From the NCBI GenBank assembly GCA_040285855.1, contig JAUFOQ010000003.1, positions 310,001 through 374,000 of the forward strand: 64,000 nt of DNA. The letters run 5' to 3'. Every line of letters starts with the position of its first letter. Positions within the stretch are counted from its first letter, which is position 1. The notes under the pieces were generated by a model. The model was not told where the DNA came from. It did no database searches and was given only the letters and a program-made list of their open reading frames with translations. Below, piece after piece: positions 12,907 to 53,705 of this stretch. A program made the translations under genes and the position numbers. This DNA is from Eukaryota sp. GEM-RC1. Taxonomy: Eukaryota.

Positions 12907-15488
12907 TTGTTCTACCACCAGTACAATGTACTAGTAGTATCGGAAATAACACAATTTCCTTCTCAAATTGTCAATTTAATGTCTGCAACCTATTTCGACT
13001 CCACCAACTATTCTCTGACTGTAGCCACTCCCTTAACAAGCTCTTTCGAACAAATCCGTTGGAGGGATTACCAACGGCGGGGTTCAGCAAACCCATTCCC
13101 TTCTCTTTTGCCTCCTCCTCCACTCTTCGAAGAATCCGTAGAGTCTACTGTTATTCCGCAAATCAAAACATTCTCATTTGGATCTACTTCCTTCTGTAAC
13201 AAACTCCACTCTCTTCAGAAAGAGAATCTACTTGTAGACACAATCATTGACTATGATGACGTTTCTTTCCACTGCCATTCTTTCGTCGTTAGTTGTTTCA
13301 GTTCTTATCTTAAAGAAAAACTTCTTCGATCTTCTTCAGTAGAGTTTGAATCACTTCCTTTTCTTTCAGATTCTGACCTTTTTTTCTTGGTTCTCTCAAC
13401 TTTCTATGGTCAATCTCTTCCTATTACAACTAAATCTCTTCCTCCTCTTTCCTTCATTGCTTCTCTTCTTCAATTTGAGGAGTTAAGTGACTTTGTTAAT
13501 GAGAGAATGACAAAAGGGTTGGGCAACTTTGAAGACAATAGTTTTCAATTGGACTTGACTAGTTTAGTTTCGAAAATGATCACGTCTTGTTCTAGAGATG
13601 TCAGTGTTTCTTACAAAAATACCGCTCTTACGATGAATTCTGTTCTGTTAGCTTTAAATTCTACATTCTTTTATAATTCTTTTACATGTGGCTTTGCTGA
13701 TTCAAATGTTCGAAGATTTGAATACTCTGAAGAATTTCCAGGTGTCACTGAAGAAGTTTTCTCCATGTTTTTGAGTTGTTCCATTGTAAATCTATCAAAT
13801 TTAATATTTCAAATATCTTGGATTTTTTCCAGTTATCGGTTTACTTCCAAGTTGACGAGCTTAAATTGGCTTGTACAGAGTTTCTTGCAACCAATTTTTT
13901 CTCAGCAAATGAGTTGATTCTTTTGTTAGAAATTTCAAATGAAAGAAACCAACTCATTTTCATTGAGGAAAATATTCAAATATTCAAGATTCTTTATACT
14001 GTTTTTGAAGACCCTATTCCATTAAGAGTTTCTTTTATCAGTATTTTATATAATGTTATTGATTTCCGTTGGGTAACCAACTGTTTAATGCTACTTTATG
14101 AAACAGAAGGTTTGCCGGCTTCAGAGTTATTTGTTGCTTTGAATTCCTTAACTACCGGAGAAGTTCAATTGTTTGAACTATTTGAAATTTTGTTGCCACT
14201 TTTTGAAAATTTACATTTTACTTCTGCTTTATTGGATTGGTCGGTCAAAATTTTTAAAAATGTACAGGATTTACACAATATTCCGCATTCCTGGTTTCTT
14301 GTAACATTGCGTGAAGTGGATAAAACCAAATGTTTTTCCAAACATTTAAATTTCCTTTGTCAAATTTTCCCCTCAATCATTACTACTGAATCTCTGAGCT
14401 TTTTAACTGATTTTTGTTTCTCCCCTGCTTGTCTTGAACTTCTTTGTTCAAAACTTCCTGGTGAATATTGTTTATGGTTAGCAAGAAGTCTTGTCAATTC
14501 CTGGAAGAATTCTGAAGAATTCAATCTTTCTTGGTCAGTTGATTCTTTTGTCAAATGCGTCGAATTTATTACTGTCTTGGATGGAAAACAATTTGAATTT
14601 TTAAATATAATCGTTGGTTTAAATGACGTTTCTCTCGAACCATTTATCAACTCTCTTATTTCTAACGGACCATCTGGTCTCTGGCCTCCACTTCAATCAA
14701 AGGTAGAGCTCATCGAGCCTTTTTCAACTGGAAACGAAGTTCAATCCAATCATGGGGAAGCTATCGATCTCCTTCAATCAGGTACTAATTTAAATCATGC
14801 TGAATCAATGTTCAAGTTAGGAAGTTGTTATTACTTGGGTTCAGATGGGAAACAGAATTTTGAAAAAGCAGCTGAATACTTTAAAAAATCTGCTGTGTTG
14901 GGACACGTGTTTGGTATGGTTAATATCGGATATTGTTACTACATTGGTAAAGGTGTTTCAGTATCCAGTACAGATGCTTTCTATTGGTTCAAAAAAGCAG
15001 CAGATTTAAATAATTCTGAAGGTTGCTATCGCTTGTCAATTTGTTATAATCGTGGCAAAGGAGTGGAACAAAATCTCGAAGAAAGTATTAGACTTTTAAA
15101 AATTGCTGTAGAATTAGGCAATGCTGGTGCAATGACTCAGCTGGGTTGTGCTTATGACATAGGCCAAGGAGTTGACAAGGACATTGAGTCAGCTACCAGA
15201 TTCTACCAAATGGCTTTTGAAGGCGGTTGTTCAGCTGGTATGAGGAACCTGGGGATATAGGTTAGAAACGGCGTAGGAGTACAACAAAGTAATGAAGATG
15301 CTTTTACATTGTTTCGAACGTCAGCAGAATTGAACTATGATAAAGGAATTGAACAACTGGTCAATTGTTACAAGAATGGAATTGGAGCTGAACCTGATTT
15401 AGATAAAGTAAGGTATTGGGAAAGAAGGAAGAAGGAACTAGAAGGATGTGAACCTATTGATAAGTTGAGGAGGAGAGGTTTGATGTAG
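12907..15488 (+). CDS. Tandem BTB/POZ + Sel1-like repeat protein (frameshift near 13776; in-frame TAG at 15258-15260)
   Basis: BTB motifs VDTII..DDVSFHCHSFVVSCFSSY and DVSVSY..LALNSTFF, then Sel1 repeats (SMFKLGSCYYLG, GMVNIGYCYYIGKGV). Sel1-like sequence continues in frame past the TAG to 15488. Confidence 0.8.
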
Positions 15489-20534: not shown

Positions 20535-20742
20535 TACTCATGCTCAGCATGAGTTGACTAATTGAAAGTAGCTCTGTCAAATTTGGAAACACTTCCAAGG
20601 TGTATTACTTAATGTATTCCAATGGATTACTATGCGAAACGAGAATATATCAGTACGTTATGGCTATTAATCGGATATAAATCGGAAGTGGAATTTGATC
20701 ACTCCACTTCAGGAGGAAATCAACACTAAATGCTGCCTACTG
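20535..20742 (-). ncRNA. Candidate Fanzor omegaRNA / structured 3' end of element 1 (displaced by a hAT insertion)
   Basis: Lies about 30 nt after the Fanzor stop once the hAT MITE is removed. Stems gaagtgga/tccacttc, ttggaa/ttccaa and actcatgc/gcatgagt. Confidence 0.4.
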
Positions 20743-20750
20743 GTTAAGGT

Positions 20751-21744
20751 CAGGGATCGGAATTTATTGTATTGTATTGTATTGCACTTTTGCAAACTGC
20801 AACAATAAATAATTGTATTGTTAATCAATAATCACAAAATATTGTGAACAATATTGATTCTATTTGTACTGAAAAATATCATTAACTAACATTTGCTAGT
20901 ATGATACAGTCGATTTTACAATGGTCATAGTCAGTGTTAATAATGACATTACTAGTTCATGGATGTACAAAAAGTAATTCACGATCGAAACACCACACAT
21001 CTATTGGTAAAAGCGATGGCTATACAAAATCGTTGAAGAAAAAATGAAATACCAAGAACAATATACACGTATTTCTACACTCTACTTAGTATATGGTCCA
21101 GCAGATTGGCGGTAACAAGTGTTTGAAGGTATATCCCATGAAGGTATATTCTCAAAATTCGTGCATTTGTTAGCTACAAAAAATGTCTTAGGGTGTCATT
21201 CATTCAGAAGCAGACCGTCGCCATTGATATAATGTTTGAAGACAATAAATGCTAAAGAAAAACCAGAATTTCACACGAACTGTGAGAGTATACTAACAGT
21301 AAGAAGCTGCTCGGTGGAAAAGACGAATCTCCATGTACCAGCAACATACTTGTCTAAAATAGAATTCATATAGTGTTCACATTGAAAACACAACAACCAA
21401 TATTTACTATTTATGGCGATAGTTTTGGACACATACATGACAATTTTATTCATTGAGTGGATGGATGTGGGATGCAGCGGTTGATAACTGCTGCATTAAC
21501 AATCGTACTTCACATGGTTGTCTCTAGGAGAAGCAGTACGGTCGTCACAATCATCTCTGACCTCAAAAAGTTGTCACTGATCTGTTTGGATGAGTAGATC
21601 TTAGGAAAGTAGACATGAAAAATAATTTGTATTGTAATCAGTATATTTTATTTATTGTATAATATTGTGGTACTCGAACAATAAATAATTGGGATATATT
21701 GTATTTAAATTATTTGTAGTGCAATTATTTAGTTCCGATCACTG
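20751..21744. mobile_element. Non-autonomous hAT transposon (994 bp)
   Basis: TIR cagggatcggaa / ttccgatcactg (11 of 12 match), exact 8-bp TSD gttaaggt (20743-50, 21745-52), subterminal tattgt/acaata repeats at both ends. Confidence 0.9.
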
Positions 21745-21772: not shown

Positions 21773-24700
21773 CTAAGATCCAGACTGATCGATCAAAACG
21801 TCCACATTTTCTTCACTCTCATCTTCTGTAACGACGTCCTTTTCCTCACTCTCCTCAGTCTCAAGACATTGTACACAACTAATCTCAGAAGTCATTTGTT
21901 CAGATTGGCTTCTGCTGAGAATAGTTGGCCTGGGTAGCCCAGCTAACTTTGCCTTCATGATTTCCATAATGTTGATTCCTGAATTGAAATCCCTGTCCCA
22001 CATAGTAGTACAATACTTACACTTGAGCAAACCCCACGGTTTCACTTCAGCACGTTTCTCAAATTCCTCTTCAGCTTTTCTCCACTCTTCTTGGAAATCC
22101 ATACTGTTTTTCTTACAGTACCACTTCAGCCACTTCTTTTCCGTTTCTTCTTTCGATGGATGTTCGGATCTGGACATCTGATTCCATGATTGTGGGTATT
22201 TTCACCAAATATTCCGTCCTTAGCACACTTAGAGCAACACTTACTAGTTCGGTACTCATCCACTAGAAAAATCTTGAACCCTGCTTTTCTAAATAGCTTC
22301 CTCATTGCTTTTCCTTTAATTGTCGGAATAAAACCTTTCGAGCGAAAAGCAGAGTCGTTCCAATCACCATAACCGATGAGAACTTTATTTGGTTCACCAA
22401 ATTTTTTCTTGAAACGGTTGATCATTTGGTCTTCTCCCCGTTTCTTGTTGGAGTACAACTGAAGTTGTCTCTTTCTAAACCAAGTTGAACTGTATAAATT
22501 CCAAGTTCTCAAGTTGAATAATTCTTTTTGATAGATGTACTCACAAAACTCTTCACGAACACAAGATTGTTTTTGTCCTTGATTGACAGCAGCAGAGAAG
22601 AGATTCATTGCATCTTTACCAGTTACATCAAGACCGGTTGTCGATTCGAGCTTTAGTTGTTCTGTTTTACGGTATTTTTTGAATTTGGAGTCGTAGTTAC
22701 GTTCTCCTTGAGTATAAACAAACTTTTTAAACTTGTCTTTTTCTCTCAGCTTAACATCTTTAGAGACTTGAACTTCAGGTTTGGGTGTTCTGTGGTTTCT
22801 TCTGTTTTTAATGACACGTCCTGATGGCTTTCGTGGTCTTGTGGTTGCATCTTTTTAATTCCTTCTTTTCCAATTCCTCAGCAGACTTTTCTGTGACAGC
22901 AACAATTGGGGCATACTTATTTGGATCAATGCCCACAAGAGTTCTTTCTCTGAGATTTAATTCCTCAATATCGGCATCGGTTAAATCATCCAGATACTTT
23001 TCTTCAGTATACAATTGAATTGTAGAATATTTTTTCCTACTAAATCGTTTCTTTGTAAAACAAGTGAAACTGAAACACCATCAGTTTGGAGTGAGTTTTT
23101 GAAGGAGTAATTTGCCTTAGTAGATTTGGAAGCATCTAGCATCTCTGTTAAGTAGGGAATCCCAAATTTCTGTTCCATATTGGACAGAACGACTTGTGTA
23201 AAATTTCTTTGTTTGTTTTTTTGAAAATTTTCTCTCCAGAAATCTTGGATTCTAAATCTTGAACTTCAGCCATGGCTTCTTTTTTGAAAAAATTACCTAA
23301 AAAAACTTTAGTGTCAACTCTAAAATGCTGTGGAATGACAGTGTCTGTTAAAGGTAGACAATTTGGAATACTGCAAGGATTACCTCTTTCATCAGTTTCA
23401 GCTCTAACAAGTTTTGTTATAAACATTGCATGAGACAACAATTTCATTGGATGGACCTTTTGAGAATAGAATAAGTTTTTATCTTTGACAAATATTGAAG
23501 TAAAATGACTTTCCAGATAGTTTTTAAAATTTCTACAAATATTTCTTTCAGGATTTTCAAATAAGTCAAAATTGATTTCAGAAATTTTACAATCAATAAT
23601 TTCTCTCTCAATTGTTTAAACTGGGACAACAATTCTTGTTTTTCAATCACATGGTCTTTTAACTCTGTTATTCTCGATTTTTTATTCAAACAAATGTTCA
23701 TGGCACGGAAAATGTATTCATGAAAGTGCATTTTCAAATGAGTAGCATAATTTGCACGTACATGTCTTGAATGGTATTTCAAAATTTGATCCATTAATGT
23801 GTAGGAAGGAGCTAGGAAATCGTAATCATCCTCAAAAACTTGAGGTTGTAAATATGTCCATGATGCGACATTTTGTTCGGAGATCATTTCGAGAATTGGC
23901 AAGTAATAGTCCAAACATAGGTGAGCCATCCTACATCTCATTGAGACTAGATCACTAGACACAGTACCTCTTTTCGATGTTCTTTCTACAAGTTCCACAG
24001 TTTCCGAATCTTCCATTTCGATCTCTTCTTCTTCCTGTTCAATTTTGATGTACAATACTTGCATCTTTTCATCACAACCTTGTTTTTCATAGTAGTGTTC
24101 CAATTCACTTCTTTTTGACAAACAGACCACCATAAAGACTCCAGAACCTTGTTTTTTTCTTGAAGAATGTCCAAGTTGGGTAATTCGTGAGGTTTTTCAT
24201 TTATTTGACGATCATATTCATCAATAAAGAATAACTTTAAGAGCATTCTACCTCTGGTATTGATTCTACTAAAATTCTTTCCAATTCTGCGAAATTTATT
24301 AAGATCAGATTGTTGATCATGGGGATTGGGATCTTTGAGAATTTGACGAAGATCACATTTAACAGATTTAACAGCAGGAAGAAACAACATTGTTTGCAAT
24401 TTTTTATCTAAGAAGAAGTCTACTAAGTGACGACATAATTCAACATCGTTAATACAATAACAAGCAAGAGACCTACGGTCTTCATCTGAACAATTCCACA
24501 AACGTTCAATTTCTTTCAACTTGGCTAAAGTAGTTCGATTTCTTAGCACTTCATAACCTTGACTCTTGTACTTAGTTGTAAGACGAACTTTCTCATCTTC
24601 AGATAAAAGATCCAATTTTTGAACTCGTGAACCTTCAAACAGATATGAAACAACATTTCCAATGATCTACCTCCGGGAAATGTATAAGTAGAACGTAAGA

Positions 24701-25468
24701 GTTGATACAAATCGAGAGACCAAAAAGAAGCAAGATTTGACTTCTTAGCCCATCTTTGAAAAAACCACGGACAACAAACAGAACCTTCACCCAGTTTAAT
24801 TAAGAAATTGATTTCCACATCAAGCAGTTGACATCGACGAATAATAAATGGCAAATCAAATGAATTTAAATTGTAACCACAAATGAGTTTTGGCTTTTCC
24901 CATTTCAGGAGATGAATAAATTCAACCAACATTTCCTTTTCATTTTCAAAATGAACAACTTCAGCATTGAGATCATCAGTAAGAACTGGCTTAGAAGTAA
25001 ACAAGAAACTCCTTGACTCTTGTAAAGGATGTTCAAAAGTATTTACAAGTTGGATTCCAATCTGGATGATTGAATCATTTTCAAAGTCAGGTTTCAACTG
25101 ATCTGGTTCTTCAGACAATTCAGAGATTGGTTTGGCTTCTGAATCGAGATCATCGTCTGCAGCATCTTTTTTCTCCGAAGTTTTAGGGAGTTTTACAGTA
25201 TGCAATTCTTTTGCCGAAAGAGATTCAATGTCCAGAAAAGATATAACTCCTCAGCTTCTAGAAACTGCAAAGGAGATTCGGACGGTACAGTTTTCTTCTT
25301 ATGAGCAGGTTCTGTACCAAGACTTGAAAGACTCAATCTTGTACCCAGGGGATCAGAATTGGGATTAGATTGTGGACCTGGATTGGATTCCACATCACCA
25401 TCAGACGTAAGATCAATTTTGAACTGCAGTCTACAAGCAAAACTGACAGAAATTTGCAAAAACGACAC
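21773..25468 (-). pseudogene. 2A peptide - PolB-type DEDDy exonuclease - Fanzor1 fusion (multiple frameshifts in this assembly)
   Basis: In order: GDVESNPGP; FLDIES (ExoI); GYNLNSFD (ExoII); YCIND (ExoIII); VKCDLRQIL; QTDGVSVS; VGIDPN (RuvC-I); IGYGDW; VDEYRTSKCCSKC; LLKCKYC..WDRDFNSGINI (RuvC-III). Confidence 0.88.
25373..25411 (-). other. 2A-like ribosomal skipping (StopGo) motif LTSDGDVESNPGP
   Basis: Exact match to the D(V/I)ExNPGP consensus with the usual upstream LxxxG. Confidence 0.85.
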
Positions 25469-26444
25469 TTCAACAAAATTTCACCACCACCACTTTCAAA
25501 ACCACCAGAACCACCACCGATCCACTGAATTTTACAAGGAGGCAAGTTTGGGGGCTGGAAAGCAGTGTGTTGCCCTGGTGGTTCTATCACCATGCTGGGC
25601 ATGTAAAAATGATAGGCCTGACTGCCAAAAACAACACACATACTCCCATAAAAAACCCTCGACTTCGAAAAACTAAAAAATTTGGATTGAATTGGATCAA
25701 TGACCAAAAATGCCTTCCTTGGGGTTTTGCTTGAACAATGATGCCTTTGAATAGCATATTGCCGCCCGGTCCCACCCAGGCTGTATGGATACGAGATATC
25801 TAAAGAAGTTGCTTCTGTAGAATTCCACCTGATTTGATAGGACGACTTTCCCACCAAAAAGAGGCCTCTCATAACCGTCGAATCAATGAACATCGACATG
25901 TGAGCAGAAAATGGACCATTTTTTATGTTGTTGGTATTTGTAGATGTGTCTACAGTGTCATGTCAGTCAAGACATTTATTGACAATTGTCTTCATTTTTC
26001 ACTTTTCAGTGTCCTCTACATGTACAATTGACCATGAATTTGCTCCTTTCAGTTGTTCTTTAAACAATTCACATCTTTCACTTCACATTTGGAGCCCAAC
26101 ATTTCTTCTCTTCACACACTTTCCTTCTGAAGATGATGTATCAAGATTCGTATTGGTTTTCTGGACACACTTTACACAAGATCACGCTACAAATGTCCCA
26201 CTTCCTTTCTTTTTCTGTTCTTATCCTTTGTTTTGATATAAATAAATGTAGAATTGGACGACACAATTTGGTCTCAATGGCTTCCATGGAGACGTTTTGC
26301 TGGAGGAAGGAGATACCAAGAACATTGAACGAGGCCTCCCAAGTCTCAGTCTTTCATCTTACATCACTCAGTCAACTCTCGTCTTTCCGATGCATCAACA
26401 AACATGTAACATTCCCTTTTCAATATAGATTTATCTTCTCTTAG

Positions 26445-27123
26445 TAGCACTGGGCGTTCAGATATCCGATCCGATCCTATCTGAATTTCTTGTATCTGAA
26501 TCTGATCCGATCCGAACTACCCTTGATCCGAATCTGATCCGATCCGAACTACTCTAATCTGAATCTGATCCGATCCGAACAACTCTAATCTGAATCCGAT
26601 CTGAAATCCGAACAAGCAGAATCTTCTTAGCCCTTTCTTGACTATATGAGAACACCAATATCATATTCTTTATATCACTTAACATCTGAATCATTGTATC
26701 TTGTTTAATGAATGAAATCTGGCTCTGTTTTCAGTTTATTCTTATAGTCTTAGTCAAAGTGTTGTATTCTTGATTATGATATAGCTTAAGGAATCTGTAT
26801 AAATCAAATCACTTGGCAACTTTCTTCAAAGTTGTACAGTTAAATACTATCCATGTTACATTGAATGTGATTGTACCCAGCAAAATCCGCAGTACAAACG
26901 ACAGAACATGTATTAGGTTAGGATCTTTATACAAATGAACACAGTATAAAGATCATTGTATAATTACAACAGTAACAGTCTACAAAAGTTGTATACACCA
27001 CAATTGGTTTCAGATAACGGATATCTGACTTCGATCTGAATCCGAACAATAGGATCTGAATCCGATCCGAATCCGATCCGATCTGAAATCTGAAATGAAA
27101 TCTGATCTGAACGCCCAGTGCTA
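26445..27123. mobile_element. Non-autonomous hAT transposon (679 bp)
   Basis: Perfect 19-bp TIR tagcactgggcgttcagat / atctgaacgcccagtgcta, exact 8-bp TSD tctcttag, dense subterminal tccga/tctga repeats. Confidence 0.92.
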
Positions 27124-28987: not shown

Positions 28988-29072
28988 AACGAACTTGAAG
29001 AGTCATCAAGAATTGCATTTTCTTTTGCTAATTATTTAGTAAACGTAATGTATTAACAAACCATAGCATTTA

Positions 29073-32330: not shown

Positions 32331-33596
32331 TTGAGTAAGCAAAAATTTGAGGTCTTGAGATGGAATTTACACACTTGTAGCCACCCACCGATGTGTTTCC
32401 GGTTTTTCCTTGTCACTGGCCACTGCACGTGTGAAAAAAACCATGTGCTGCTGTAATTTATTCATATTGTTATTTAATCATTTAAATGTATTAGAAGGTG
32501 TATTTAGAAAATTTGCAAGTGTAAACAATAGCAATGTTGGTGTTGAGAACGAACTGTGACGTACTACTATAGTAGTAGTAAACAAGTTTTCTTCAATCGA
32601 TTCTTTTATGATTGACCTCCACCTTAAGTAGGATATCTTTCTCCCCAAAACATCTTCAAACTAGCATCTTCATGGAACTTGACTTATCTGATGATCGAAC
32701 TCTTGTTTTTTCCGGGTATTACGGCTTCTTTCTCCCCGACGTTGATAGAGCTTCTATTGGGGAGTACGAGTTCTATGGTGGTGCCATTCTTAGAAGTTTG
32801 AACTTTAGTCCAGACCAAGCTCCTGAAACTTTGTTGTGTTTCGGAGTTGAATATACAGATGACTTCCCACATGGTTTTCTGCTTGTTATGCCTAGCTTCA
32901 TATCTCATTGTGTAAGAGGTTTGTTTTAACTTGTAACCTGATCATAGTTGGAGAGGTTACTGATCTAGATAGGTTTCTGTGTGCTCCTTCTCGTTCCTCT
33001 GATATTTCGTGTGATCATATTGATGATCTAGCACTACTTACTCCTAGAATGCCAGATGATGTTGAGATCTCCATGTCTTGATTTCTTTACAACAATTTAG
33101 AAAACATTTTTTTTGCAGCAGTTGTACGGTCATTGGTGATGTTTTGCGATGATTTTGACTTATCTACTTGATACATTGGTATGCATGAACCATTAGTAAC
33201 TGATTAATGAATCGGGATAACCCTTAAGTGTATGCTTTTGTAGACACTCTCTATGTATTCTGTAAATTGTATTCAATATACGCTGCTTGATTACCTTTAT
33301 TATATACGATATCTTCTGCCACAAAGGGACAAAGTAGTTAATGTCTCAGTGATCGAATCAAGTATAAACAATGGGAAAGTTGTCAACGACCCCTTAGTAT
33401 GTCTAACTTTAAAGTCAACTAGTAATGTCTTATCAATTATACACCAAGACAATACATCTATTGAAAGTGTCATTTGTTAATGGTTTAAGCTAAGTTCTTC
33501 CAGATAAAACTCAACGTAATGTCAGTAAAGATATGGATAATGAAAGTACATCAAAAATGCCGAGCCAAGAGGCTGATTTACTAACTTTACTACATA

Positions 33597-34533
33597 TCGT
33601 CGAGGTCCCAATACAAGCAACCTTAAATACTATACAAGCATACCCCTTACTATGCTTGTATTGGAACCTGCTTGTATTAGGGTCCCTTAAAACTCACTTG
33701 TGACTGTACAACTATTGATCACGATAAGTGGACTAACATGGAATTTCAAACCACTTTCTGTCATTCAATATCCTAGTCCATCTAGATCGTCTAATTCTAA
33801 ACAAAAGGTGAACAAAAGTATGTCTCCGTTATCAATTTCTTGATCATTCAAGCGTCTTTATAAAACGCATCTGGTATTGTGCTGCCAATTGACATTATTT
33901 CCATCTTTTTTTTGATCTCTTAATACTTCTTCGGCAACAAACTTGTTTCTCAGGAATTCTTATTACTTCTGCAATTATTCACCATAGTCAACTCTGTAAT
34001 CATTCACATGAATCTTGTTAATAAATTGTGTGAAACCATCAAAGAGATTTGATTTCTGAGGATGTCCTCCGCACGATTGGTTTGTAAAGTCATTGTTTCT
34101 TCAAAAACGACTGTATTCGACAAAATACCAGATGTACTAGTGTAACATATTGAGTCAAGAGCAGAAAACAACAAAGAGTAACAAAGTTCGTTCAACAATA
34201 GTTTTATAGACGAACATATATAAAGACGAATGTATAATATTTTGGTCACGTGTTTGTTAATAAATACATGTACAATGTACAACAAGTTATCTGACACGAA
34301 GTGACATATGTAATTGACCCGAACGAATTGTGTAAAACGATACGAGTTGGCTGAAGTACCAGTACCTATACCGGTAGGTGAAATCAATGAAAAATTCCAA
34401 CGGTAGCCCACTGATGTTTTATATCAATGTTCTGAGCTTTTTGAAGAAACATTAAAGTTTATTTTGTGAAATAATACAAGCATACCCTCTACTATGCTTG
34501 TATTGGAACCTGCTTGTATTAGGACCTCGACGA
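33597..34533. mobile_element. Non-autonomous TA-flanked (Tc1/mariner-type) element
   Basis: 23-bp TIR tcgtcgaggtcc(c/t)aatacaagca flanked by TA on both sides. A ~48-bp hairpin-containing block (atacaagcata...tatgcttgtat...) is repeated directly at both ends. Confidence 0.85.
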
Positions 34534-34679
34534 TACAGACTTACACTAAAATGATGTTAAACTATAGCAATAAAAATTCAACAATAAACTTAAATATATT
34601 TTACAATTGTTCAACAAAATTTAGAAACTTCATAATATTCCAGCATGCTAATTTTTTAAAATTGTTCCAATTTAAACCT

Positions 34680-35711
34680 TTACTTGAAGCCTCTCCAATT
34701 GCATTTGAGACACAGGGTATGTTTTGGACCTAAATTTAAATCTAATGATAATGAAATGAGATCAGATCGAGAAATATTGGAATAATTTTTAAATTTGTGG
34801 TCGACAATTTCACAGAATTCCTCAAAATCATAACCCAAACAGGTATCACCAGAATAAACAATTTCATCAATCTGGGACATTCGAAGTAGACAATCGGCTA
34901 TACGTGACTTCACGTCATCAAAAATGATTGATTGATACCCTTCACAATCAAGATGATTGAAATCCAACTGACTAACAGCCACAATCAACTGCTTTCTAGA
35001 AATTGGAACATCCATAGACTCCAGTGCTGACAACAATTCCTCAAAGGTACATGGAGCAGGAAGGGAAAGGGAAGACAGAGACTGATGGAGAAGAGAAGTA
35101 GACGGAGGAGGTGGAAGGGCATTGAAGTGATAAGCCTTAGCTAAGGAAGAAAAGAGGGTGGACGCTATGGTAGTAGCATCGGTGGTATTGGCAAAAAGAG
35201 CTTGGAGGAAAGTTTGTTCACGAGTAGAGAAACCAAATGTAGACGAACGGAAGAAGCTTTGAAGAGAACAGAAGTCTAAAGGAGCAGGGAGGTGTTGGAG
35301 GAGATAAGCATCAAGTTCATCTTCAGTGTAGCCATGAAGGGACTTAGGGAGGGTAGAATATTGGGGAGGACAGTTCAGAACGGATTGAAGTTCTTGTGCA
35401 AGGAAATTCAGGTTGACTGTGTGAGTTTGATCATTGTCTACAAACAGATGACTGAAGAAATGATATCGTTGGTAGTCTGGTAGTGAGAGGGAGTTTATAG
35501 TGCTAACCACAGAAAAGATTGTTTCGTTAGCATCAGGAGATCGTACGAGTTCAATGAGTTCAATGGGGGTGTAGTCACAAGCTGGATTTAGTCCCTTCTT
35601 TTTTAAGAAGTATTCAGCTCCAAAGTCAAATATGTTATCAGGTTGTGAGCGAAGTACTTCACGAGTGAAAGCCCGTAGTACCCGAGGAAACTCAGAAGGA
35701 ATTGAAGTCAT
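34680..35711 (-). CDS. RIIa dimerization/docking-domain protein (Sp17/ropporin/radial-spoke-like)
   Basis: N-terminal IPSEFPRVLRAFTREVLRSQPDNIFDFGAEYF is the RIIa D/D signature. Confidence 0.8.
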   Translation of the reverse strand: MTSIPSEFPRVLRAFTREVLRSQPDNIFDFGAEYFLKKKGLNPACDYTPIELIELVRSPDANETIFSVVSTINSLSLPDYQRYHFFSHLFVDNDQTHTVNLNFLAQELQSVLNCPPQYSTLPKSLHGYTEDELDAYLLQHLPAPLDFCSLQSFFRSSTFGFSTREQTFLQALFANTTDATTIASTLFSSLAKAYHFNALPPPPSTSLLHQSLSSLSLPAPCTFEELLSALESMDVPISRKQLIVAVSQLDFNHLDCEGYQSIIFDDVKSRIADCLLRMSQIDEIVYSGDTCLGYDFEEFCEIVDHKFKNYSNISRSDLISLSLDLNLGPKHTLCLKCNWRGFK

Positions 35712-35799
35712 GTATAGTGAATTGGTAATTCTGCTAGTGTGAATCTGCAGATTCAATAATGCTACAGATTCACTGTAAAAAAAATGGCTATGACTATGA

Positions 35800-38737
35800 C
35801 TATGACAATGACAATGACAAATAACTGGGGCTAACTCCTAGACCCCGCTCCAAATGATGCTCCACAATGGTCTTGATGTTGATACATGCGAACTTGTTAC
35901 GATTCCAAACCTTGGCGCTACCATGACATTCTTCCCTACATTCTTGGGACTTGCATCTCAACAAAGCGTGACACTTTACCAGAGGTTTCTTCTCTCTTTT
36001 CCATGGTTTTGGATTACTGATTTCTTTGAACACTTTAACTGGCTTCCAACAAGTAGGACACTTTGAAGACGTGTAACTTTCGTCTACAAGAAGTATGTTA
36101 TAACCATTTCTCTTAAAGAAGTTTCTCCAACCCACACCTCTACTTGATCGGAGGTGTTTTAGGTTCTGCCTCTTATTACCATTGTCACCAAACATCAATA
36201 TACAGTCATTTTTTTCCATCCTTTTCAGTCATTTTTTTCAACAATTTACTTTCTGTTTTTTGAATATGGACGTATCTTTGCATTTTTTGAATGCGCCATA
36301 TCATCAAACAATAGTAATCAATTGTTGATCCAATAACTGTAAGTTTGGAACCCACATAGTCATAGAACGTGTCATAAAGATTTCGAATTTTCTTTGGATA
36401 GTGTTGACTCTTCTTGTTCAACTGTCTTTCCATCTTGGAGAATGAATTCTTTTTTCTTTCCCCTTCTAAACTTTTGATGAACCCTTGACCATCTGGACCA
36501 TTCTGTCTCTGTCAATCTTAGCCACTCATATTGATTGTCTCTTCTTTCTCGGGCTTTTTGTTCAGGAAATGGCCTATTTACTTTCTCTGAACAAAAATAG
36601 AGTAAATCTGTTTTTCCAGGATCAATAAACACTTTTGTTTTCAATGAAAACTCTTCAATATCATAGTCTTGAACATATTCTTCTTTACTGGAGAACTTTG
36701 CACTGTCTGGTTTTAAGGACATTCCAACACAGTCCTCTCTGGTAAGTTCAACACAAGCAGAGAAACCATCAGTTTTAATGGTATTGTTAAACTTATAGCC
36801 TTTCTTTTGAAATGGACGATTAAAATGGAAAAAGTGAGACCAGAATTGATTTTTGTTCAGCAGGAGACATTTTTAAATTTCAGTTTGTGTATTCCAATTA
36901 GACATTTTCTTCTTGACATTCACTTGTTGTGTTGACAAAGTGGAACGTCATATTCCCCAAAAGACCTTGTGTATCTATTTCAAAGAAACCTGGTGTGACG
37001 TGACGAACAATCGGAATTACATTGTAAGCACTTGCTCCTTCCCTTTCATGATATTTATTTATTTGAATAGCAGATTTAATAAAGGGTTGAGGATGTTCAC
37101 GAATTGATTTTAGTAGATATTTAACGACTTTCTTTTTATAAACACCATTAGCATTTTGAATATCAATTGATGGTGGGAATAGAACATCAATAAAATATCT
37201 ATCTCTAAACAATCCTTCAACATAGTCGTTAGTTGCCCACAAAAGTTTAATTTTACCTGCAATGTTCAAACTTCTATTGTTGTCGTCTTGAAGAATTTCT
37301 GTATTACATCTTTGAATGAATTGTTTTGCTTCTGCAGGGGTTTTTGGAATGTCATTTCTGTTACCTTCAAGAAAGAAATTTTTAACTTGTCTAAGTCTCC
37401 AACGGAAAACAGACTGTTCTTTTTTTGACATTTTTTCTCCTTGATCTGTCTTTTGAAAATAAACATTAATAAATTTGTCAATGTATTGAGGATATCGCAT
37501 TTTAATGTTTGTGTCCAAATTCGATTTAATAGTTTCACCAACCATTTTCATAAGTCGTGAGGAATGAGCAGCTGGAAAGAGTGGGATTCCTCCATTGTTG
37601 AGCATAACTTGTTTGTATTCTTCTAAAACAAAGTTTTTCAAGTGTTCATTAAATGCAGTAGCTGGTCGTTGATTACATTATTTAATCTCATGATGTTCAG
37701 CAGAGATGTATCTTAACAGAGTTTGAATATGTTCGACTTCCTTCCTTGTAATTAAAGGTAATTTTGCACCATTCTTATCCATGTGTAATGAAAACAGCTT
37801 CAAACAAAAGGAAGTGCACATTCTAAGTTTGTGAACCAATTGAGCATAATGATCGAGTAATAACGTTAATCGAAAATGTTTGACAATAGACTTTAGTGTA
37901 GTTTTATGTGTAACAAAAGTTGGACGAACGATTATTTGGTTGAAACAATAAAAACAACTTCAATGCTATTACACTATCTTTGGAAGCAATAGTTTAGAAC
38001 TTCTTGAGGTCTTTCAACAACACAATCAATAGGCAATAAGTGGTGAAATTCGTCATAAAAACGTCCTTTAGATTCGTTTAATAAAAACCAACTTAATGAT
38101 CTTAATGACTTTGAATATTTTGAAACAATAAATTGCTTAGCATAAACGTATGAATCACAGAAAATTCTACCAGCCCATTCAGAACAAACATTGTGTCATA
38201 GAGGTGATAAATGAGATTTAGTTTTTCATCTAGCATTGGTTCTGGAAAGTCGACTCCACGTGTAACAATCCTTTTGCCTAAAACAACATTATCGAAGTCA
38301 GTTATGTTAAATCCAGTTAAAACTGAGGGATTTTTATCATTGAAATAGTTTACAAAAAACTATAGTAACTGTTTTTGTTTGTCTTCAAAAAAATCGAAGG
38401 AGGCAGTTCAACATCAGATTCACGAGTCAACTCATAAGTTGCAGCAAAATTGTCATGAAGGTAAAATTGGTCTATTATAAAATGACCAAACACTCCAGAA
38501 ATCATAAAAACTTGTTGTTTTTCAATCCACACTTCTCTTTCTGCAATCACTTTTCATTTTGAGAGATCCATTCTCGTTCTTTCTTTGATCATCCAACTCC
38601 TCTGTAAAGGTCTCTGCAGGGATTTGATCAATTTCTCTAGTTTCAATATCAAAAGACAATATTGAACAATGATTAGTGTTCTTTGGTATTTGGGAATGTT
38701 TGAGAAACTTAACCATTGGTTTTTTAGGAGGTTTCAA
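35800..38737 (-). pseudogene. Second, divergent PolB-type DEDDy exonuclease - Fanzor1 fusion (frameshifted; RuvC-III Asp appears to be Asn)
   Basis: ILSFDIET (ExoI, ~38645); PSVLTGFNITDFD (ExoII, ~38300); NYC/KDSVIALKLF across a 1-nt shift (ExoIII, ~37985); HKTTLKSIV; IKTDGFSA; VFIDPGKTDL; MFGDNG; VDESYTSSKCPTC; HALLRC....C..VWNRNKFACINI. Confidence 0.85.
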
Positions 38738-39045
38738 ATTTTTGTCGCTTTCGCATATGTTACTCTTTTCTGCAATGTACTGTCCAAAAAAAAGTCAATG
38801 ACAGAATCATGAAGCAGTACATTGGGTTTTAGTGTGTCAATTTGATCAGATCTTAGTATAAGATGTCTAGGACGAGATTGTGTTAGAATTCCACGATGTT
38901 GATGTTGTAAAATTTGGGATTTTTGAGAAAATTTTTTTAACTACTGTATAGCATAGCATTGACGATAATGATTGTTCTGAGCTAAACGAGTTTTTTGATG
39001 TGTGTAATAGATTCACCGTTCAACTATGGCGCTTTGGATAAGAAA

Positions 39046-44527: not shown

Positions 44528-45708
44528 TTTTTGATTTTTTAATTTCATACTTTTTTGTAATCGTTTTTCTTATTTTTTGTTGTATACATATTCCAAATTG
44601 TGCTGCTCCTACAGTAGTTCCTATCATTTACGTTGAGAACTACAACAAGTCTCAATTCTAAACACCAATGAACAACTTCGATTTTTCTCTCTGTTAAACA
44701 ACGATAGACCGTATTTTATCATCTATTTATGTTGTAGAATGTATTTGTCATTTTGTTCCTTTAACCGAGCAATTATCAGCAAAACCACAATCTTCATCAA
44801 CACGAACAACAACAAAAGAGATACAAGATGGATGGAAAAAAGGAAACCAGGTTGCATCACTGTTGTTAAGTTAATTATCAGTGTTCAGTTTCTAGTCAGC
44901 TGAATGGCACCATGTGGAGTTGAACTCCGTTTATGATCAATAGATGAATATTTTAAATTTGCTGCAAGCAACCACCAACAGTACGAACTATAACACAGTT
45001 TGATAGACATTGAGATTCAGTCCTCTTTCGGGTCTATGGATTTCACCGATAACAGTGAATCTCTTGTCAAAATTTTGTTAGACAACAACGATTTGTCTCT
45101 TTGGTAATCAAAGTCCTAGAAAATACTTCTCAGTACGTTACAGGGAACATCTGAAACCGTATACTCTCATCTAAATGTACAGTTTGTATCAATTTGTTCC
45201 TTTAACCGAACAGTTTTCAACAACGCTACAGTCTTCATCAACACGAACAACAACAGAATGTATGAAAAAAGGAAACCAGGTTGCATCACTGTTGTTATGT
45301 TAATTATTGGTGTTCAGTTTCTAGTCAACTGAATGGCACTATGTGGAGTTGAACTCCGTTGATGAATATTTTAAATTTGCTGCAAGCAACCTCTGTACTA
45401 CCAACAGTACGAACTATAACACAGTTTGATAGACATTGAGATTCAGACCTCTTTCGGATCTATGAATTTTATTGATAACAGTGAATCTCTTGTCAAAATT
45501 TTGTTAGACAATAACGATTTTTCTCTTTGGTAATCAAAGTCCTAGAAAATACTTCTCAGTATGTAACAGGGGACATCTAAATCCGTATACTGTCATCTAA
45601 ATGTACAGTTTGTGTCAATTTGTTCCTTTAACCGAATAGTGATCAACAACACTACAGTCTTCATCAACACGAACAACAACAAAAGAGATACAAGATGGAT
45701 GAAAAAAA

Positions 45709-48393
45709 GATTTGGTTGTGTGTAATTTTTTGGACCTTCTCTTCTAATTGCGCAAGTTTCTGTTGAGTTGGAAAATCTGTAAATTTATAATACCCACTTG
45801 ATCGACTTATCATTGGAGCCAATGTGTTATTGAAAAACTTTATAATTCCAGCAATGACATTATCCAATGCTCCAATTTGGTTGTTTAGATCACCCATTTG
45901 GTTATTGATTTGACCAATATCTTTGCTAAAGATATCTCCATGCACATATCTTCCCAACATTTCCTCAATGGTCCCTAAAAGATCATCTCTAAACAGATTT
46001 AACTCTTCAGCTTGACTATGTCCCCCATATAAGGAAGGAACAAACACATCATCTAAATTGGATTCTCCAAAATCTGTATTCAAAATATCATCAACAATTC
46101 TTGGTCTTCTTCCTCCAATTCTACCCCCAAAGTATCTGAAAGAATCTTGATCATAGAAATTTGATACAGCAAAAGAATCATCGATACCTTGTCGATAGAA
46201 ATTAATCAAGAATCGTTTTAAAGAATTCAAATATCTTCTATATAATTGATATTGCATAAAATGTGGATTGTTAGCTTTTTGAATTATTTCTGCAATTTGA
46301 TGGTCTAACCCATCAATGTGTTGACCCATTGATATACGAACAATCACCTCATACAATACTTTTAAATCTTGATATAAAACATCAACGTGTCTACTATCTA
46401 AATCCTGAAGAGATGCAATTTGATCATATGATTCTTTAGCCACACGAATGTCATTCTTTAATGCTCGTAAAGAAGAATCATCCAAATCACAATCAATTAA
46501 TGTTTTCATCCAATTTGCACAGAATAATTGAGAACAAGTTTTTGTATTTTCCAAAGTTTGTACGACATTTGGATTTTGAAGTAAATCTTCTCCCACATGT
46601 TCACAAATATCATTATAAGTGATGTTGGAATGTTTTAATAATTTTGGATTTTCATCTCCAATGACATTATATTTAATCAGATTTTGTAATCTAATGTTAT
46701 CGTTATTTGTAATTGGAGTACTATTCAGATCCTCATCTTCAACTGATGTAAAAATGGTATTTAATGAATTTGAACAATAAGCAGGTTTTTTTTAATGTTG
46801 TAGTGTAAGATTGTGTTTCTAAATCATAAACAATGGTTTCTTGAGTTTGATCTGGTCCAAGTTTCACTAATGCATCATTTGGATTGAATTTTCCAAAGGT
46901 TAATGCTTTTGCAAGATATTCGCCATCATCAGCTACCTCTGCTGGATCTACAGGAAGACTTTTAGCATTTCCTGGATATATGCGTACAACAAAATGATCC
47001 GGAGAAACATCAGAAGAACCACCTTTTTTGAAGTACGAGTGAATGCTTGGGGGTTTTACATAGAATTCATCAAACACGTTCTTACCAGTATTTGGTCCAT
47101 ACTCCTTATCTAAATGATTGTAATACCAATCCAGATTCGCCTTATTCTGACTATCATTCAAATCCAACCAATTCTGATGTAATGGATTTGCATGCCATCG
47201 TCTAAAGATGTCATTATTAATGGGTCTGACATAAGGACGACCCTCTTCGTAAAGCATATTAGCATACTTGGGAACAAAATATTCATGGTACAATCTGTAA
47301 ATGTCATCTGGAGTTGGTTTACGGTTCGTGGCTTGTTCATAGTCTTGTCTGTATTTTTCTGTTTCATTCCACCACGTAGTTCTATCATTCAAATTCACAA
47401 ATTTTAGCTCGTATCCAATCTTGTCATTTTCAAATACGTGCAGTCTAAGAGTCTCATCTTGCCTAGTTCGAGGTCGAGTTTTTAGAATGGGTCCCACAGT
47501 TGGTATATTTGTAGAGGGTTTAGAAGTGGATTGAGAAGTTGAGTCGTGTTGTTGTTTAGCAGCATCTTCTCGTTGTTTTCGTTTTCGTTGAGCAGCATCA
47601 TGGCTGGAGAGTGTGAGATGGGAAGTGATGTGTTGCATGAAGTTTTTAACAATGTATCTCCATTAATTTTGCATGTTGAGATAATCTAATAGCTTCTAAC
47701 TCTTTCTTTACAGCTGGATCCAAAACAAATCCTGTGTTCTGGAGTCTACGTAAAGTCTCATTACTTACTTGATATAAATCCATCGCGTCTTTATAAACTT
47801 TTTCTAGGTCATTGGTTAATCTCGTGGATAATTGAGTTAACTCCTCTGAATTTCCTACACCTATCGCGGTTTGTTGATATTGGGTAAATAAATCAATCAT
47901 TTCATTATATTTAGCAAGCAGATTGATGTTATTTGAATATGCAGCATTTAAAAAAACTGCTAGAGTTTGTTTTTGATGATTAGATGCGTTAAATTTTTGT
48001 ACTTCTTCTCTTGTCTTTGTTTGTTCCTGTCGTAGTTGTTGCTGCAAGTTCTTTACAGATTCATTTAGTTTAGCCATCTCAAGCTTTGGAAACATTTCGC
48101 GTATTCTTAAGTTGAGCAGCCAACTCCTTATGTTGAGCAACACTTGATTCATATGATGTCCTTAGTCTATGCAGATCTTTTTCCTTTTCAGTATATTGTT
48201 TAATAAGATTCTCATAGTCGATCTTCATTTTGTCAATAGTTTCCTGCAATTGCTGAGAGTTCCTATGCTCATCTCTGAGTTGATCCTGTAATTGTTTTAT
48301 CATATCTTGTACACCTGGAGCACCATCGCTAATATTTTGTTTTAACCGATTAATTTCAGATTGCAATTTTCTGATTTAAGATTTTGAAAAAAA
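45709..48393 (-). repeat. 2.7-kb coding cassette in satellite, copy 1 (5'-truncated coiled-coil gene + 3'-truncated unknown gene)
   Basis: ORFs 48079..48366, 47646..48152, 46739..47638 and 45664..46596; inserted at the monomer A-tract. Confidence 0.85.
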
Positions 48394-51021
48394 GAAACCA
48401 GGTTGCATCACTGTTGTTATGTTAATTATTGGTGTTCAGTTTCTAGTCAGCTGAATGGCACCATGTGGAGTTGAACTCCGTTTATGTTCGATAGATGAAT
48501 ATTTCAAATTTTGCTGCAAGCAACCTCTGTACTACCAACAGTACGAACTATAACACAGTTTGATAGACATTGAGATTCAGTCCTCTTTCGGGTCTATGGA
48601 TTTCACCGATAACAGTGAATCTCTTGTCAAAATTTTGTTAGACAACAACGATTTGTCTCTTTGGTAATCAAAGTCCTAGAAAATACTTCTCAGTACGTTA
48701 CAGGGAACATCTGAAACCGTATACTCTCATCTAAATGTACAGTTTGTATCAATTTGTTCCTTTAACCGAACAGTTTTCAACAACACTACAGTCTTCATCA
48801 ACACGAACAACAACAGAATGTATGAAAAAAGGAAACCAGGTTGCATCACTGTTGTTATGTTAATTATTGGTGTTCAGTTTCTAGTCAACTGAATGGCACT
48901 ATGTGGAGTTGAACTCCGTTGATGAATATTTTAAATTTGCTGCAAGCAACCTCTGTACTACCAACAGTACGAACTATAACACAGTTTGATAGACATTGAG
49001 ATTCAGACCTCTTTCGGATCTATGAATTTCATTGATAACAGTGAATCTCTTGTCAAAATTTTGTTAGACAATAACGATTTTTCTCTTTGGTAATCAAAGT
49101 CCTAGAAAATACTTCTCAGTATGTAACAGGGGACATCTAAATCCGTATACTGTCATCTAAATGTACAGTTTGTGTCAATTTGTTCCTTTAACCGAATAGT
49201 GATCAACAACACTACAGTCTTCATCAACACGAACAACAACAAAAGAGATACAAGATGGATGAAAAAAAGAAACCAGGTTGCATCACTGTTGTTATGTTAA
49301 TTATTGGTGTTCAGTTTCTAGTCAGCTGAATGGCACCATGTGGAGTTGAACTCCGTTTATGTTCGATAGATGAATATTTCAAATTTTGCTGCAAGCAACC
49401 ACCAACAGTACGAACTATAACACAGTTTGATAGACATTGAGATTCAGTCCTCTTTCGGGTCTATGGATTTCACCGATAACAGTGAATCTCTTGTCAAAAT
49501 TTTGTTAGACAACAACGATTTGTCTCTTTGGTAATCAAAGTCCTAGAAAATACTTCTCAGTACGTTACAGGGAACATCTGAAACCGTATACTCTCATCTA
49601 AATGTACAGTCGATATCAATTTGTTCCTTTAACCGAACAGTTTTCAACAACACTACAGTCTTCATCAACACGAACAACAACAAAAGAGATACAAGATGGA
49701 TGAAAAAAGGAAACCAGGTTGCATCACTGTTGTTATGTTAATTATTGGTGTTCAGTTTCTAGTCAGCTGAATGGCACCATGTGGAGTTGAACTCCGTTTA
49801 TGATCGACAGATATTTTAAAATTTTGCTGCAAGCAACCTCTGTACTACTAACAGTACGAACTATAACACAGTTTGATAGACATTGAGCTTCAGACCTCCT
49901 TCGGATCTATGGATGTCACCGATAACAGTGAATCTCTTGTCGTAATTTTGTTAGACAACAAAGATTTTTCTCTTTGGTAATCAAAGTCCTAGAAGATACT
50001 TCTCAGTACGTTAAAGGGAACATCTAAAACCGTACACTCTCATTTAAATGTACAGTTTGTATCAATTTGTTCCTTTAACCGAACAGTTTTCAACAACGCT
50101 ACAGTCTTCATCAACACGAACAACAACAAAAGAGATACAAGATGGATGGAAAAAAGGAAACCAGGTTGCATCACTGTTGTTAAGTTAATTATCAGTGTTC
50201 AGTTTCTAGTCAGCTGAATGGCACCATGTGGAGTTGAACTCCGTTTATGATCAATAGATGAATATTTTAAATTTGCTGCAAGCAACCACCAACAGTACGA
50301 ACTATAACACAGTTTGATAGACATTGAGATTCAGTCCTCTTTCGGGTCTATGGATTTCACCGATAACAGTGAATCTCTTGTCAAAATTTTGTTAGACAAC
50401 AACGATTTGTCTCTTTGGTAATCAAAGTCCTAGAAAATACTTCTCAGTACGTTACAGGGAACATCTGAAACCGTATACTCTCATCTAAATGTACAGTTTG
50501 TATCAATTTGTTCCTTTAACCGAACAGTTTTCAACAACACTACAGTCTTCATCAACACGAACAACAACAGAATGTATGAAAAAAGGAAACCAGGTTGCAT
50601 CACTGTTGTTATGTTAATTATTGGTGTTCAGTTTCTAGTCAACTGAATGGCACTATGTGGAGTTGAACTCCGTTGATGAATATTTTAAATTTGCTGCAAG
50701 CAACCTCTGTACTACCAACAGTACGAACTATAACACAGTTTGATAGACATTGAGATTCAGACCTCTTTCGGATCTATGAATTTCATTGATAACAGTGAAT
50801 CTCTTGTCAAAATTTTGTTAGACAATAACGATTTTTCTCTTTGGTAATCAAAGTCCTAGAAAATACTTCTCAGTATGTAACAGGGGACATCTAAATCCGT
50901 ATACTGTCATCTAAATGTACAGTTTGTGTCAATTTGTTCCTTTAACCGAATAGTGATCAACAACACTACAGTCTTCATCAACACGAACAACAACAAAAGA
51001 GATACAAGATGGATGAAAAAA

Positions 51022-53705
51022 GATTTGGTTGTGTGTAATTTTTTGGACTTTCTCTTCTAATTGCGCAAGTTTCTGTTGAGTTGGAAAATCTGTAAATTTA
51101 TAATACCCACTTGATCGACTTATCATTGGAGCCAATGTGTTATTGAAAAACTTTATAATTCCAGCAATGACATTATCCAATGCTCCAATTTGGTTGTTTA
51201 GATCACCCATTTGGTTATTGATTTGACCAATATCTTTGCTAAAGATATCTCCATGCACATATCTTCCCAATATTTCCTCAATGGTCCCTAAAAGATCATC
51301 TCTAAACAGATTTAACTCTTCAGCTTGACTATGTCCCCCATATAAGGAAGGAACAAACACATCATCTAAATTGGATTCTCCAAAATCTGTATTCAAAATA
51401 TCATCAACAATTCTTGGTCTTCTTCCTCCAATTCTACCCCCAAAGTATCTGAAAGAATCTTGATCATAGAAATTTGATACAGCAAAAGAATCATCGATAC
51501 CTTGTCGATAGAAATTAATCAAGAATCGTTTTAAAGAATTCAAATATCTTCTATATAATTGATATTGCATAAAATGTGGATTGTTAGCTTTTGAATTATT
51601 TCTGCAATTTGATGGTCTAACCCATCAATGTGTTGACCCATTGATATACGAACAATCACCTCATACAATACTTTTAAATCTTGATATAAAACATCAACGT
51701 GTCTACTATCTAAATCCTGAAGAGATGCAATTTGATCATATGATTCTTTAGCCACACGAATGTCATTCTTTAATGCTCGTAAAGAAGAATCATCCAAATC
51801 ACAATCAATTAATGTTTTCATCCAATTTGCACAGAATAATTGAGAACAAGTTTTTGTATTTTCCAAAGTTTGTACGACATTTGGATTTTGAAGTAAATCT
51901 TCTCCCACATGTTCACAAATATCATTATAAGTGATGTTGGAATGTTTTAATAATTTTGGATTTTCATCTCCAATGACATTATATTTAATCAGATTTTGTA
52001 ATCTAATGTGATCGTCATTTGTAATTGGAGTACTATTCAGATCCTCATCTTCAACTGATGTAAAAATGGTATTTAATGAATTTGAACAATAAGCAGGTTT
52101 TTTTTAATGTTGTAGTGTAAGATTGTGTTTCTAAATCATAAACAATGGTTTCTTGAGTTTGATCTGGTCCAAGTTTCACTAATGCATCATTTGGATTGAA
52201 TTTTCCAAAGGTTAATGCTTTTGCAAGATATTCGCCATCATCAGCTACCTCTGCTGGATCTACAGGAAGACTTTTAGCATTTCCTGGATATATGCGTACA
52301 ACAAAATGATCCGGAGAAACATCAGAAGAACCACCTTTTTGAAGTACGAGTGAATGCTTGGGGGTTTTACATAGAATTCATCAAACACGTTCTTACCAGT
52401 ATTTGGTCCATACTCCTTATCTAAATGATTGTAATACCAATCCAGATTCGCCTTATTCTGACTATCATTCAAATCCAACCAATTCTGATGTAATGGATTT
52501 GCATGCCATCGTCTAAAGATGTCATTATTAATGGGTCTGACATAAGGACGACCCTCTTCGTAAAGCATATTAGCATACTTGGGAACAAAATATTCATGGT
52601 ACAATCTGTAAATGTCATCTGGAGTTGGTTTACGGTTCGTGGCTTGTTCATAGTATTGTCTGTATTTTTCTGTTTCATTCCACCACGTAGTTCTATCATT
52701 CAAATTCACAAATTTTAGCTCGTATCCAATCTTGTCATTTTCAAATACGTGCAGTCTAAGAGTCTCATCTTGCCTAGTTCGAGGTCGAGTTTTTAGAATG
52801 GGTCCCACAGTTGGTATATTTGTAGAGGGTTTAGAAGTGGATTGAGAAGTTGAGTCGTGTTGTTGTTTAGCAGCATCTTCTCGTTGTTTTCGTTTTCGTT
52901 GAGCAGCATCATGGCTGGAGAGTGTGAGATGGGAAGTGATGTGTTGCATGAAGTTTTTAACAATGTATCTCCATTAATTTTGCATGTTGAGATAATCTAA
53001 TAGCTTCTAACTCTTTCTTTACAGCTGGATCCAAAACAAATCCTGTGTTCTGGAGTCTACGTAAAGTCTCATTACTTACTTGATATAAATCCATCGCGTC
53101 TTTATAAACTTTTTCTAGGTCATTGGTTAATCTCGTGGATAATTGAGTTAACTCCTCTGAATTTCCTACACCTATCGCGGTTTGTTGATATTGGGTAAAT
53201 AAATCAATCATTTCATTATATTTAGCAAGCAGATTGATGTTATTTGAATATGCAGCATTTAAAAAAAACTGCTAGAGTTTGTTTTTGATGATTAGATGCG
53301 TTAAATTTTTGTACTTCTTCTCTTGTCTTTGTTTGTTCCTGTCGTAGTTGTTGCTGCAAGTTCTTTACAGATTCATTTAGTTTAGCCATCTCAAGCTTTG
53401 GAAACATTTCGCGTATTCTTAAGTTGAGCAGCCAACTCTTTATGTTGAGCAACACTTGATTCATATGATGTCCTTAGTCTATGCAGATCTTTTTCCTTTT
53501 CAGTATATTGTTTAATAAGATTCTCATAGTCGATCTTCATTTTGTCAATAGTTTCCTGCAATTGCTGAGAGTTCCTATGCTCATCTCTGAGTTGATCCTG
53601 TAATTGTTTTATCATATCTTGTACACCTGGAGCACCATCGCTAATATTTTGTTTTAACCGATTAATTTCAGATTGCAATTTTCTGATTTAAGATTTTGAA
53701 AAAAA
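51022..53705 (-). repeat. 2.7-kb coding cassette, copy 2
   Basis: Near-identical to copy 1 with the same junctions; extra homopolymer indels. Confidence 0.85.

Follow-up and report, generated by a model that had tools for sequence, protein, structure and literature searches.

StopGo (2A) peptides are known from RNA viruses, from reverse-transcribing elements and from a small number of cellular genes. In Eukaryota sp. GEM-RC1 such a motif stands ahead of a putative RNA-guided nuclease, which raises the question of what it does there: does it separate the nuclease from a leader protein during translation, or is it a passenger or a relic? We analysed a window of 64,000 nt (assembly GCA_040285855.1, contig JAUFOQ010000003.1, positions 310,001 to 374,000), a eukaryotic stretch with compact genes and short introns; all coordinates below are those of the window. 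Our preferred reading is that a single ORF encodes a leader (64-175 aa), a 2A peptide, a PolB exonuclease and a Fanzor1 nuclease, and that its product is probably split co-translationally by skipping. Ribosomes would initiate in the leader and skip the Gly-Pro bond at the 2A, and a small leader protein would be released apart from a Pro-initiated exonuclease-Fanzor1 of about 1,150 aa. The 2A would give the nuclease a free N-terminus and perhaps lower its dose, a role proposed for the 2A of L1Tc in PMC3708506.

The 2A motif and its subclass

The sequence-only reading had placed a D(V/I)ExNPGP motif at 25373..25417. It is there: IDLTSDGDVESNPGP corresponds to minus strand 25417-25373, where the skip would fall between Gly, encoded at 25378-25376, and Pro, encoded at 25375-25373, and it contains the sole NPGP found in a six-frame scan of the whole window. 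From the six-frame amino-acid frequencies, D(V/I)ExNPGP is expected by chance 2.9e-5 times per window, and the core with a preceding G or H 1.8e-6 times.

The peptide is of the DLTxDG subclass. PMC12846837 defines this sequence as upstream motif 4, associated with D12 and S15, and records almost 100% StopGo in reticulocyte lysate for a tested example. The window peptide has the exact core, DLTxDG directly upstream, D12 and S15, a full fit to motif 4; on sequence grounds, the upstream match lowers the odds of a chance origin still further. A 2026 preprint (bioRxiv 10.64898/2026.09.24.754024) names the type 'chimeric class A/B', gives an example with H15 that is 98% active, and counts 43 highly active peptides among 580 retroelement 2A-like peptides in one screen.

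Natural occurrences were collected by a pattern scan for DLTxDG-DVExNPGP, which gave 62 viral and 48 metagenome stretches and 68 distinct natural contexts. RNA-virus-type Pfam domains were present in 11 of the 30 ORFs scanned around the matches and absent from 19. The type was thereby found in RNA-virus contigs, and also in Symbiodinium entries: a 14-mer identical to that of the window occupies four rows of Table S2 of Rao et al., two of them Symbiodinium, with activity given as N/A, and GEM-RC1 has no entry in the accessible part of that list.

The immediate context of the window peptide is less typical. The residue before DLT is Ile, found in 0/68 natural contexts (R or K in 49/68); the Trp position holds Phe, found in 6/68 (W, F or Y in 39/68); and the K in the middle of F-K-I, where the signature is WV(R/K), occurs in 11/68. 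A W-to-F change cut class B 2A activity ~2.3-fold in Rao et al. Because of the Ile before DLT and the Phe for Trp, skipping efficiency may be lower. Both residues favour the main rival, in which the leader and 2A are a captured RNA virus or retroelement passenger that supplies the start codon, skipping is weak or absent, and most of the nuclease keeps the leader fused to its N-terminus. Retention of the 13-position match to an active subclass speaks against such a passenger, which we consider unlikely overall. For our preferred reading, we infer that the protist's own ribosomes would skip at this peptide; among the papers listed by a literature search, none showed a StopGo test in a metamonad.

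The exonuclease-Fanzor1 and its copies

Downstream of the 2A, the minus strand encodes three parts: a linker from the post-skip Pro to ExoI (25241..25372) with a basic HKKK stretch, bounded by a T-run frame break near 25240; a family-B (Pol delta-like) 3'-5' exonuclease (24400..25240) with a frame break near 24659; and a Fanzor1 nuclease (21773..24375) with several frame breaks. There is no Met between the 2A and ExoI, the first lying 148 residues after the post-skip Pro, and the intact nuclease must therefore be translated through the 2A.

Exonuclease fragments match PF03104 (E 3e-19 in one search, 8.9e-19 in another), the closest sequence of solved structure is that of DNA polymerase delta (E 2.7e-9), and the acidic motifs ExoI (DIES), ExoII (YNLNSFD) and ExoIII (YCIND) are all present. 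The Fanzor1 part has the RuvC D-E-D triad (GIDPN, VDEYRTS, WDRD), a zinc finger and similarity to Fanzor1. Its N-terminus lies in the ExoIII frame, where a profile built from the N-termini of four stand-alone Fanzor1 proteins gives 9.7-11.2 bits in 4/4 copies, the best of 200 shuffles reaching 3.8 bits; the exonuclease-Fanzor1 fusion is therefore supported in the 2A-bearing family too. In a sister family, P0015 is a single 1182-aa exonuclease-Fanzor ORF with which the window fragments are collinear over about 1,050 residues, and it matches the solved-structure entries of SpuFz1 (E 2.8e-14), GtFz1 and PpFz1. The predicted fold of P0015 (pLDDT 32) was left out of the analysis. A zinc finger between the exonuclease and Fanzor was also considered; its CxxC, near 24050, probably lies in another frame.

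The exonuclease-Fanzor1 proteins fall into at least three divergent families (window 21773-25240 and 35800-38760, both minus strand, and P0015), with exonuclease motifs that look intact at both window loci and are degenerate in P0015 (ExoI DFK; the Asp of ExoII and ExoIII lost).

The second window locus (35800..38760), a more distant exonuclease-Fanzor, contains an in-frame Met of its own, 22 codons ahead of ExoI and only about 330 nt from the upstream host gene. It had been reported to lack a 2A, and we found no NPGP there; P0015 as annotated also has no 2A motif. Exonuclease-Fanzors can therefore exist without one, a point in favour of a captured passenger, and since both lack the motif the 2A appears, as far as can be seen, to be specific to the family of the window element. 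The end of this second locus (35766-35830) consists of a (TGTCAT/AGTCAT)n tail and a T8 run, and a possible 8-bp duplication GTGAATCT flanks the locus (other end 39009-39016); the end is retroposed-like and may be due to chance.

Seven annotated proteins of the 2A-bearing family were retrieved (P0020-P0026), all from Eukaryota sp. GEM-RC1 by source annotation; copies are known as gene models only, and any without a model escape the count. For each main fragment, the three copies compared by tblastn share about 90-97% identity with the window. The 2A region is contained in six near-identical annotated copies, P0021 beginning within the exonuclease. A protein search of viral or metagenome contigs found no relatives outside GEM-RC1, and a search with the 40-aa 2A region gave no candidate, a weak result since P0020 was missed too. 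The core is unaltered in four of the six copies; P0020 has D to N, a permitted variant in PMC12846837, and P0023 has N to I, with loss of the core Asn. That two of six cores are altered is again in keeping with a captured passenger.

Continuity of the reading frame was assessed in these copies, with a mixed, mainly favourable result. Upstream, the Gly-rich ORF runs uninterrupted into the 2A in four of the six (P0023-P0026), and the window, aligned with P0026, lacks a single T-run base while no residue is skipped; P0022 and P0020 link leader to 2A only through apparent predicted introns. The Gly-rich ORF of some 170 codons that had been noticed upstream, overlapping in another frame, is not a separate gene. 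Downstream, one frame takes in the 2A, the exonuclease and the Fanzor1 start in two of the four copies that reach ExoI (P0020 and P0022), again without skipped residues. In both, the final Pro lies 48 residues before the ExoI Asp, in agreement with the original estimate of about 50 codons. P0023 and P0026 share the window's break between 2A and ExoI. Joining across that break by restoring one T (LYLF/LDIES), as first suggested, is borne out: one base is missing in the T run near 25240.

P0020-P0022 stop soon after the Fanzor N-terminus, and leader, 2A and complete Fanzor occur together in no single record. P0024 and P0025, whose contigs are equal in length, depart from the window 13 residues past the skip site into a 16-residue tail that the window does not have, and look like truncated copies. 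The combination of leader, 2A and foreign tail may be a deletion derivative or a second element with a common 5' end.

Frame breaks and the leader

In the window copy, T runs on either side of the 2A each contain a frameshift. By our reading the net frame changes in its element number nine, and at eight of these a single base is missing. At the three breaks compared with near-identical copies, the runs are 5, 4 and 3 bases long. An unrelated repeat with three copies in the window shows six indels in 2471 columns; all six involve one base and fall within runs of 5-8, although only 8.6% of bases belong to runs of at least 4. PMC11316075 describes the GEM-RC1 assembly as R9.4 nanopore reads corrected with Illumina data. 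This read type and the homopolymer indel pattern favour assembly error, and we infer that the frame breaks of the window are homopolymer assembly errors. Programmed -1 frameshifting was considered for the breaks and set aside, as inspection found no canonical slippery heptamer in register.

The same breaks could instead reflect real decay, or an intended separation of the parts, with most copies dead, that of the window included, and the 2A a relic of an active ancestor. The LYLF break is common to three of five copies, counting the window, each of which loses the frame in that one T run; 28 nt after the Fanzor stop there is a MITE; and P0024 and P0025, which diverge 13 residues past the skip site, look truncated. 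We nevertheless hold decay to be quite improbable, given that eight of the nine frame changes are single missing bases, that the frame-restored path we drew through the element is free of in-frame stops, that the homopolymer pattern recurs in other repeats, that host genes in the window are frame-broken too, and that the assembly is of the nanopore type described above.

The leader ORF occupies 25418..25899 of the minus strand. From ATG 25899 to the 2A Gly it measures 175 aa, one base being missing in a T run near 25460, where the window copy has a frame break; the Gly-rich ORF itself has 188 codons from the same ATG. Annotated copies begin at ATGs equivalent to 25641 or 25602, with leaders of 64-88 aa (18 aa in P0020). 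The 2A accordingly lies 18-88 aa from the N-terminus in annotated models and 175 aa from it at the first window ATG. The leader frame has the highest codon score of the six frames in both halves, at 0.13 and -0.08 (5' half, weak) against 0.02-0.18 for the nuclease parts, and an open frame of at least 167 codons arose in 0/2000 shuffles of the leader.

Short N-terminal peptides ending in a 2A are known from many eukaryotic cases. The leader might likewise be mostly untranslated or intronic, leaving a short peptide that ends in the 2A, which would act as a pure translation attenuator. The P0020 model, with MG followed by FKIDLT, is by our reading consistent with splicing from a GTATGT donor near 25635 to a CAG acceptor at 25424, and 25900-25640 folds better than shuffles (z -2.57). 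Yet the host introns that can be read are AT-rich and ~34-36 nt long, against roughly 210 nt for the candidate; four copies are continuous without an intron, and so long an open frame is unexpected by chance. We regard an intronic leader as very improbable. Neither it nor decay excludes StopGo in the ancestral design. Host introns, read by us at 29030-29063 and about 34646-34681 (minus), end in TTAG.

Similarity searches with the leader gave no Pfam family match, one PHROG match only (E 0.07), nothing below E 1 among solved-structure sequences, no usable Atlas match, and among 1.84 billion representatives a single match, which belongs to the leader's own family. A single-sequence structure model (pLDDT 41) had no Foldseek match to viral structures at E 0.001, and the best VIA comparison (Z 5.8) fell inside the common range. 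Against 1101 ORFs from 110 same-motif loci the best score was 5.2 bits, shuffles giving 4.0-12.1; a leader unlike anything known, with no similarity to the ORFs of same-motif loci, is not what a captured passenger would lead one to expect. Two ideas formed by eye, that the leader is a picorna-like capsid end or a Polinton penton, were unsupported by the ORF, solved-sequence and Foldseek comparisons.

Under our preferred reading, the leader is somewhat more likely to be a vehicle for initiation and dose control than a catalytic partner. A bolder version, which we find doubtful, is that one mRNA would yield, via StopGo, a beta-rich functional partner of ~175 aa, acting in mobilisation, control or the handling of guide RNA, together with an exonuclease-Fanzor able to cut and then resect an RNA-guided target.

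A perfect 6-bp hairpin at 25940-25955, directly upstream of the leader ATG, is a possible left-end structure of the element.

Known systems and the surroundings of the element

The closest sequence likeness is to motif 4 of RNA viruses (PMC12846837), with the same hexapeptide and core, D at position 12, S at position 15 and a place between two coding regions. The difference lies in F-K-I here against W-V-(R/K) there, and in a nuclear mobile element with the motif upstream of DNA nucleases as opposed to a viral polyprotein. Symbiodinium proteins (Rao et al. Table S2) share the identical 14 residues and are likewise encoded by a protist, but carry the 14-mer at residues 1092-1107 of very long proteins.

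Comparison with L1Tc, made in the sequence-only reading, holds as an analogy. In PMC3708506, the 2As of APE-type non-LTR elements (L1Tc, Ingi, CR1, L2) also belong to mobile elements, include copies with altered cores, and lie ahead of a nuclease domain. The L1Tc type stands within about 40-80 aa of the N-terminus, a range that the 18-88 aa of the annotated models here partly overlaps and the 175 aa from the first window ATG exceeds. The analogy goes no further, as here a PolB exonuclease-Fanzor1 follows and we detected no RT or APE domain; Pfam searches of the element fragments and P0015 returned only PolB exonuclease-type and TNB families. A scan run without a positive control found no HDV-like ribozyme, a further difference from the L1Tc type as far as an unvalidated scan can tell.

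The Fanzor1s SpuFz1, GtFz1 and PpFz1 are alike in the sequence similarity of P0015, the RuvC triad, zinc-finger motifs and multicopy occurrence; they differ in having neither the N-terminal Pol delta-like exonuclease nor the leader and 2A, and no transposase or terminal repeats were identified here. The word 'exonuclease' is absent from the main text of the Fanzor surveys consulted, where we found no description of an exonuclease-Fanzor fusion; 'Fanzor' is absent from the 2A surveys consulted, and the supplements of PMC13405545 gave no match. Among the papers listed by our literature searches, none dealt with a naturally occurring 2A in Fanzor elements or DNA transposons; cases may be contained in the supplementary files of PMC12846837, the preprint and the Fanzor papers. 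The 2A is typical of its subclass: the motif is known and the setting is new. A 2A ahead of an RNA-guided nuclease would extend StopGo to Fanzor elements and to metamonads, and the leader-2A design would show a Fanzor co-expressed with a partner, or held at low dose, through one transcript. If the partner-protein version is true, OMEGA-type systems would have their first natural 2A. The natural exonuclease-Fanzor fusion parallels the engineered nuclease-exonuclease fusions of genome editing.

Two MITEs with 8-bp target duplications flank the element, both presumably hAT-like by the usual rules for inverted ends and target duplications. One (26445..27123, 19-bp perfect inverted ends, duplication TCTCTTAG) is a separate insertion upstream. 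The other (20751..21744, imperfect inverted ends, duplication GTTAAGGT), about 28 nt past the Fanzor stop, interrupts the Fanzor 3' region and occupies the expected position of a guide RNA. A search for a guide (omega) RNA at the Fanzor 3' end gave no Rfam match at gathering level, and folds were weak; a 10-bp hairpin just beyond this MITE (20685..20710, minus) is a weak candidate for a right-end or guide-RNA element (z -2.06 for the 161-nt region). In the search for element ends, inverted and direct matches between the flanks did not exceed 11 nt, and no transposase was found.

Elsewhere in the window, a Sel1-like repeat gene has an in-frame TAG at 15258-15260 (plus strand), after which the repeat frame resumes, and which may be an error, a pseudogene or readthrough. 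Another small element, at 33595-34535, is bounded by a 36-nt inverted repeat and by direct repeats of 50 nt. From 44700 to 64000 extends a tandem array of multi-kb units ~97% identical, with shorter repeats interspersed and three ORFs that have no significant Pfam or PHROG match.
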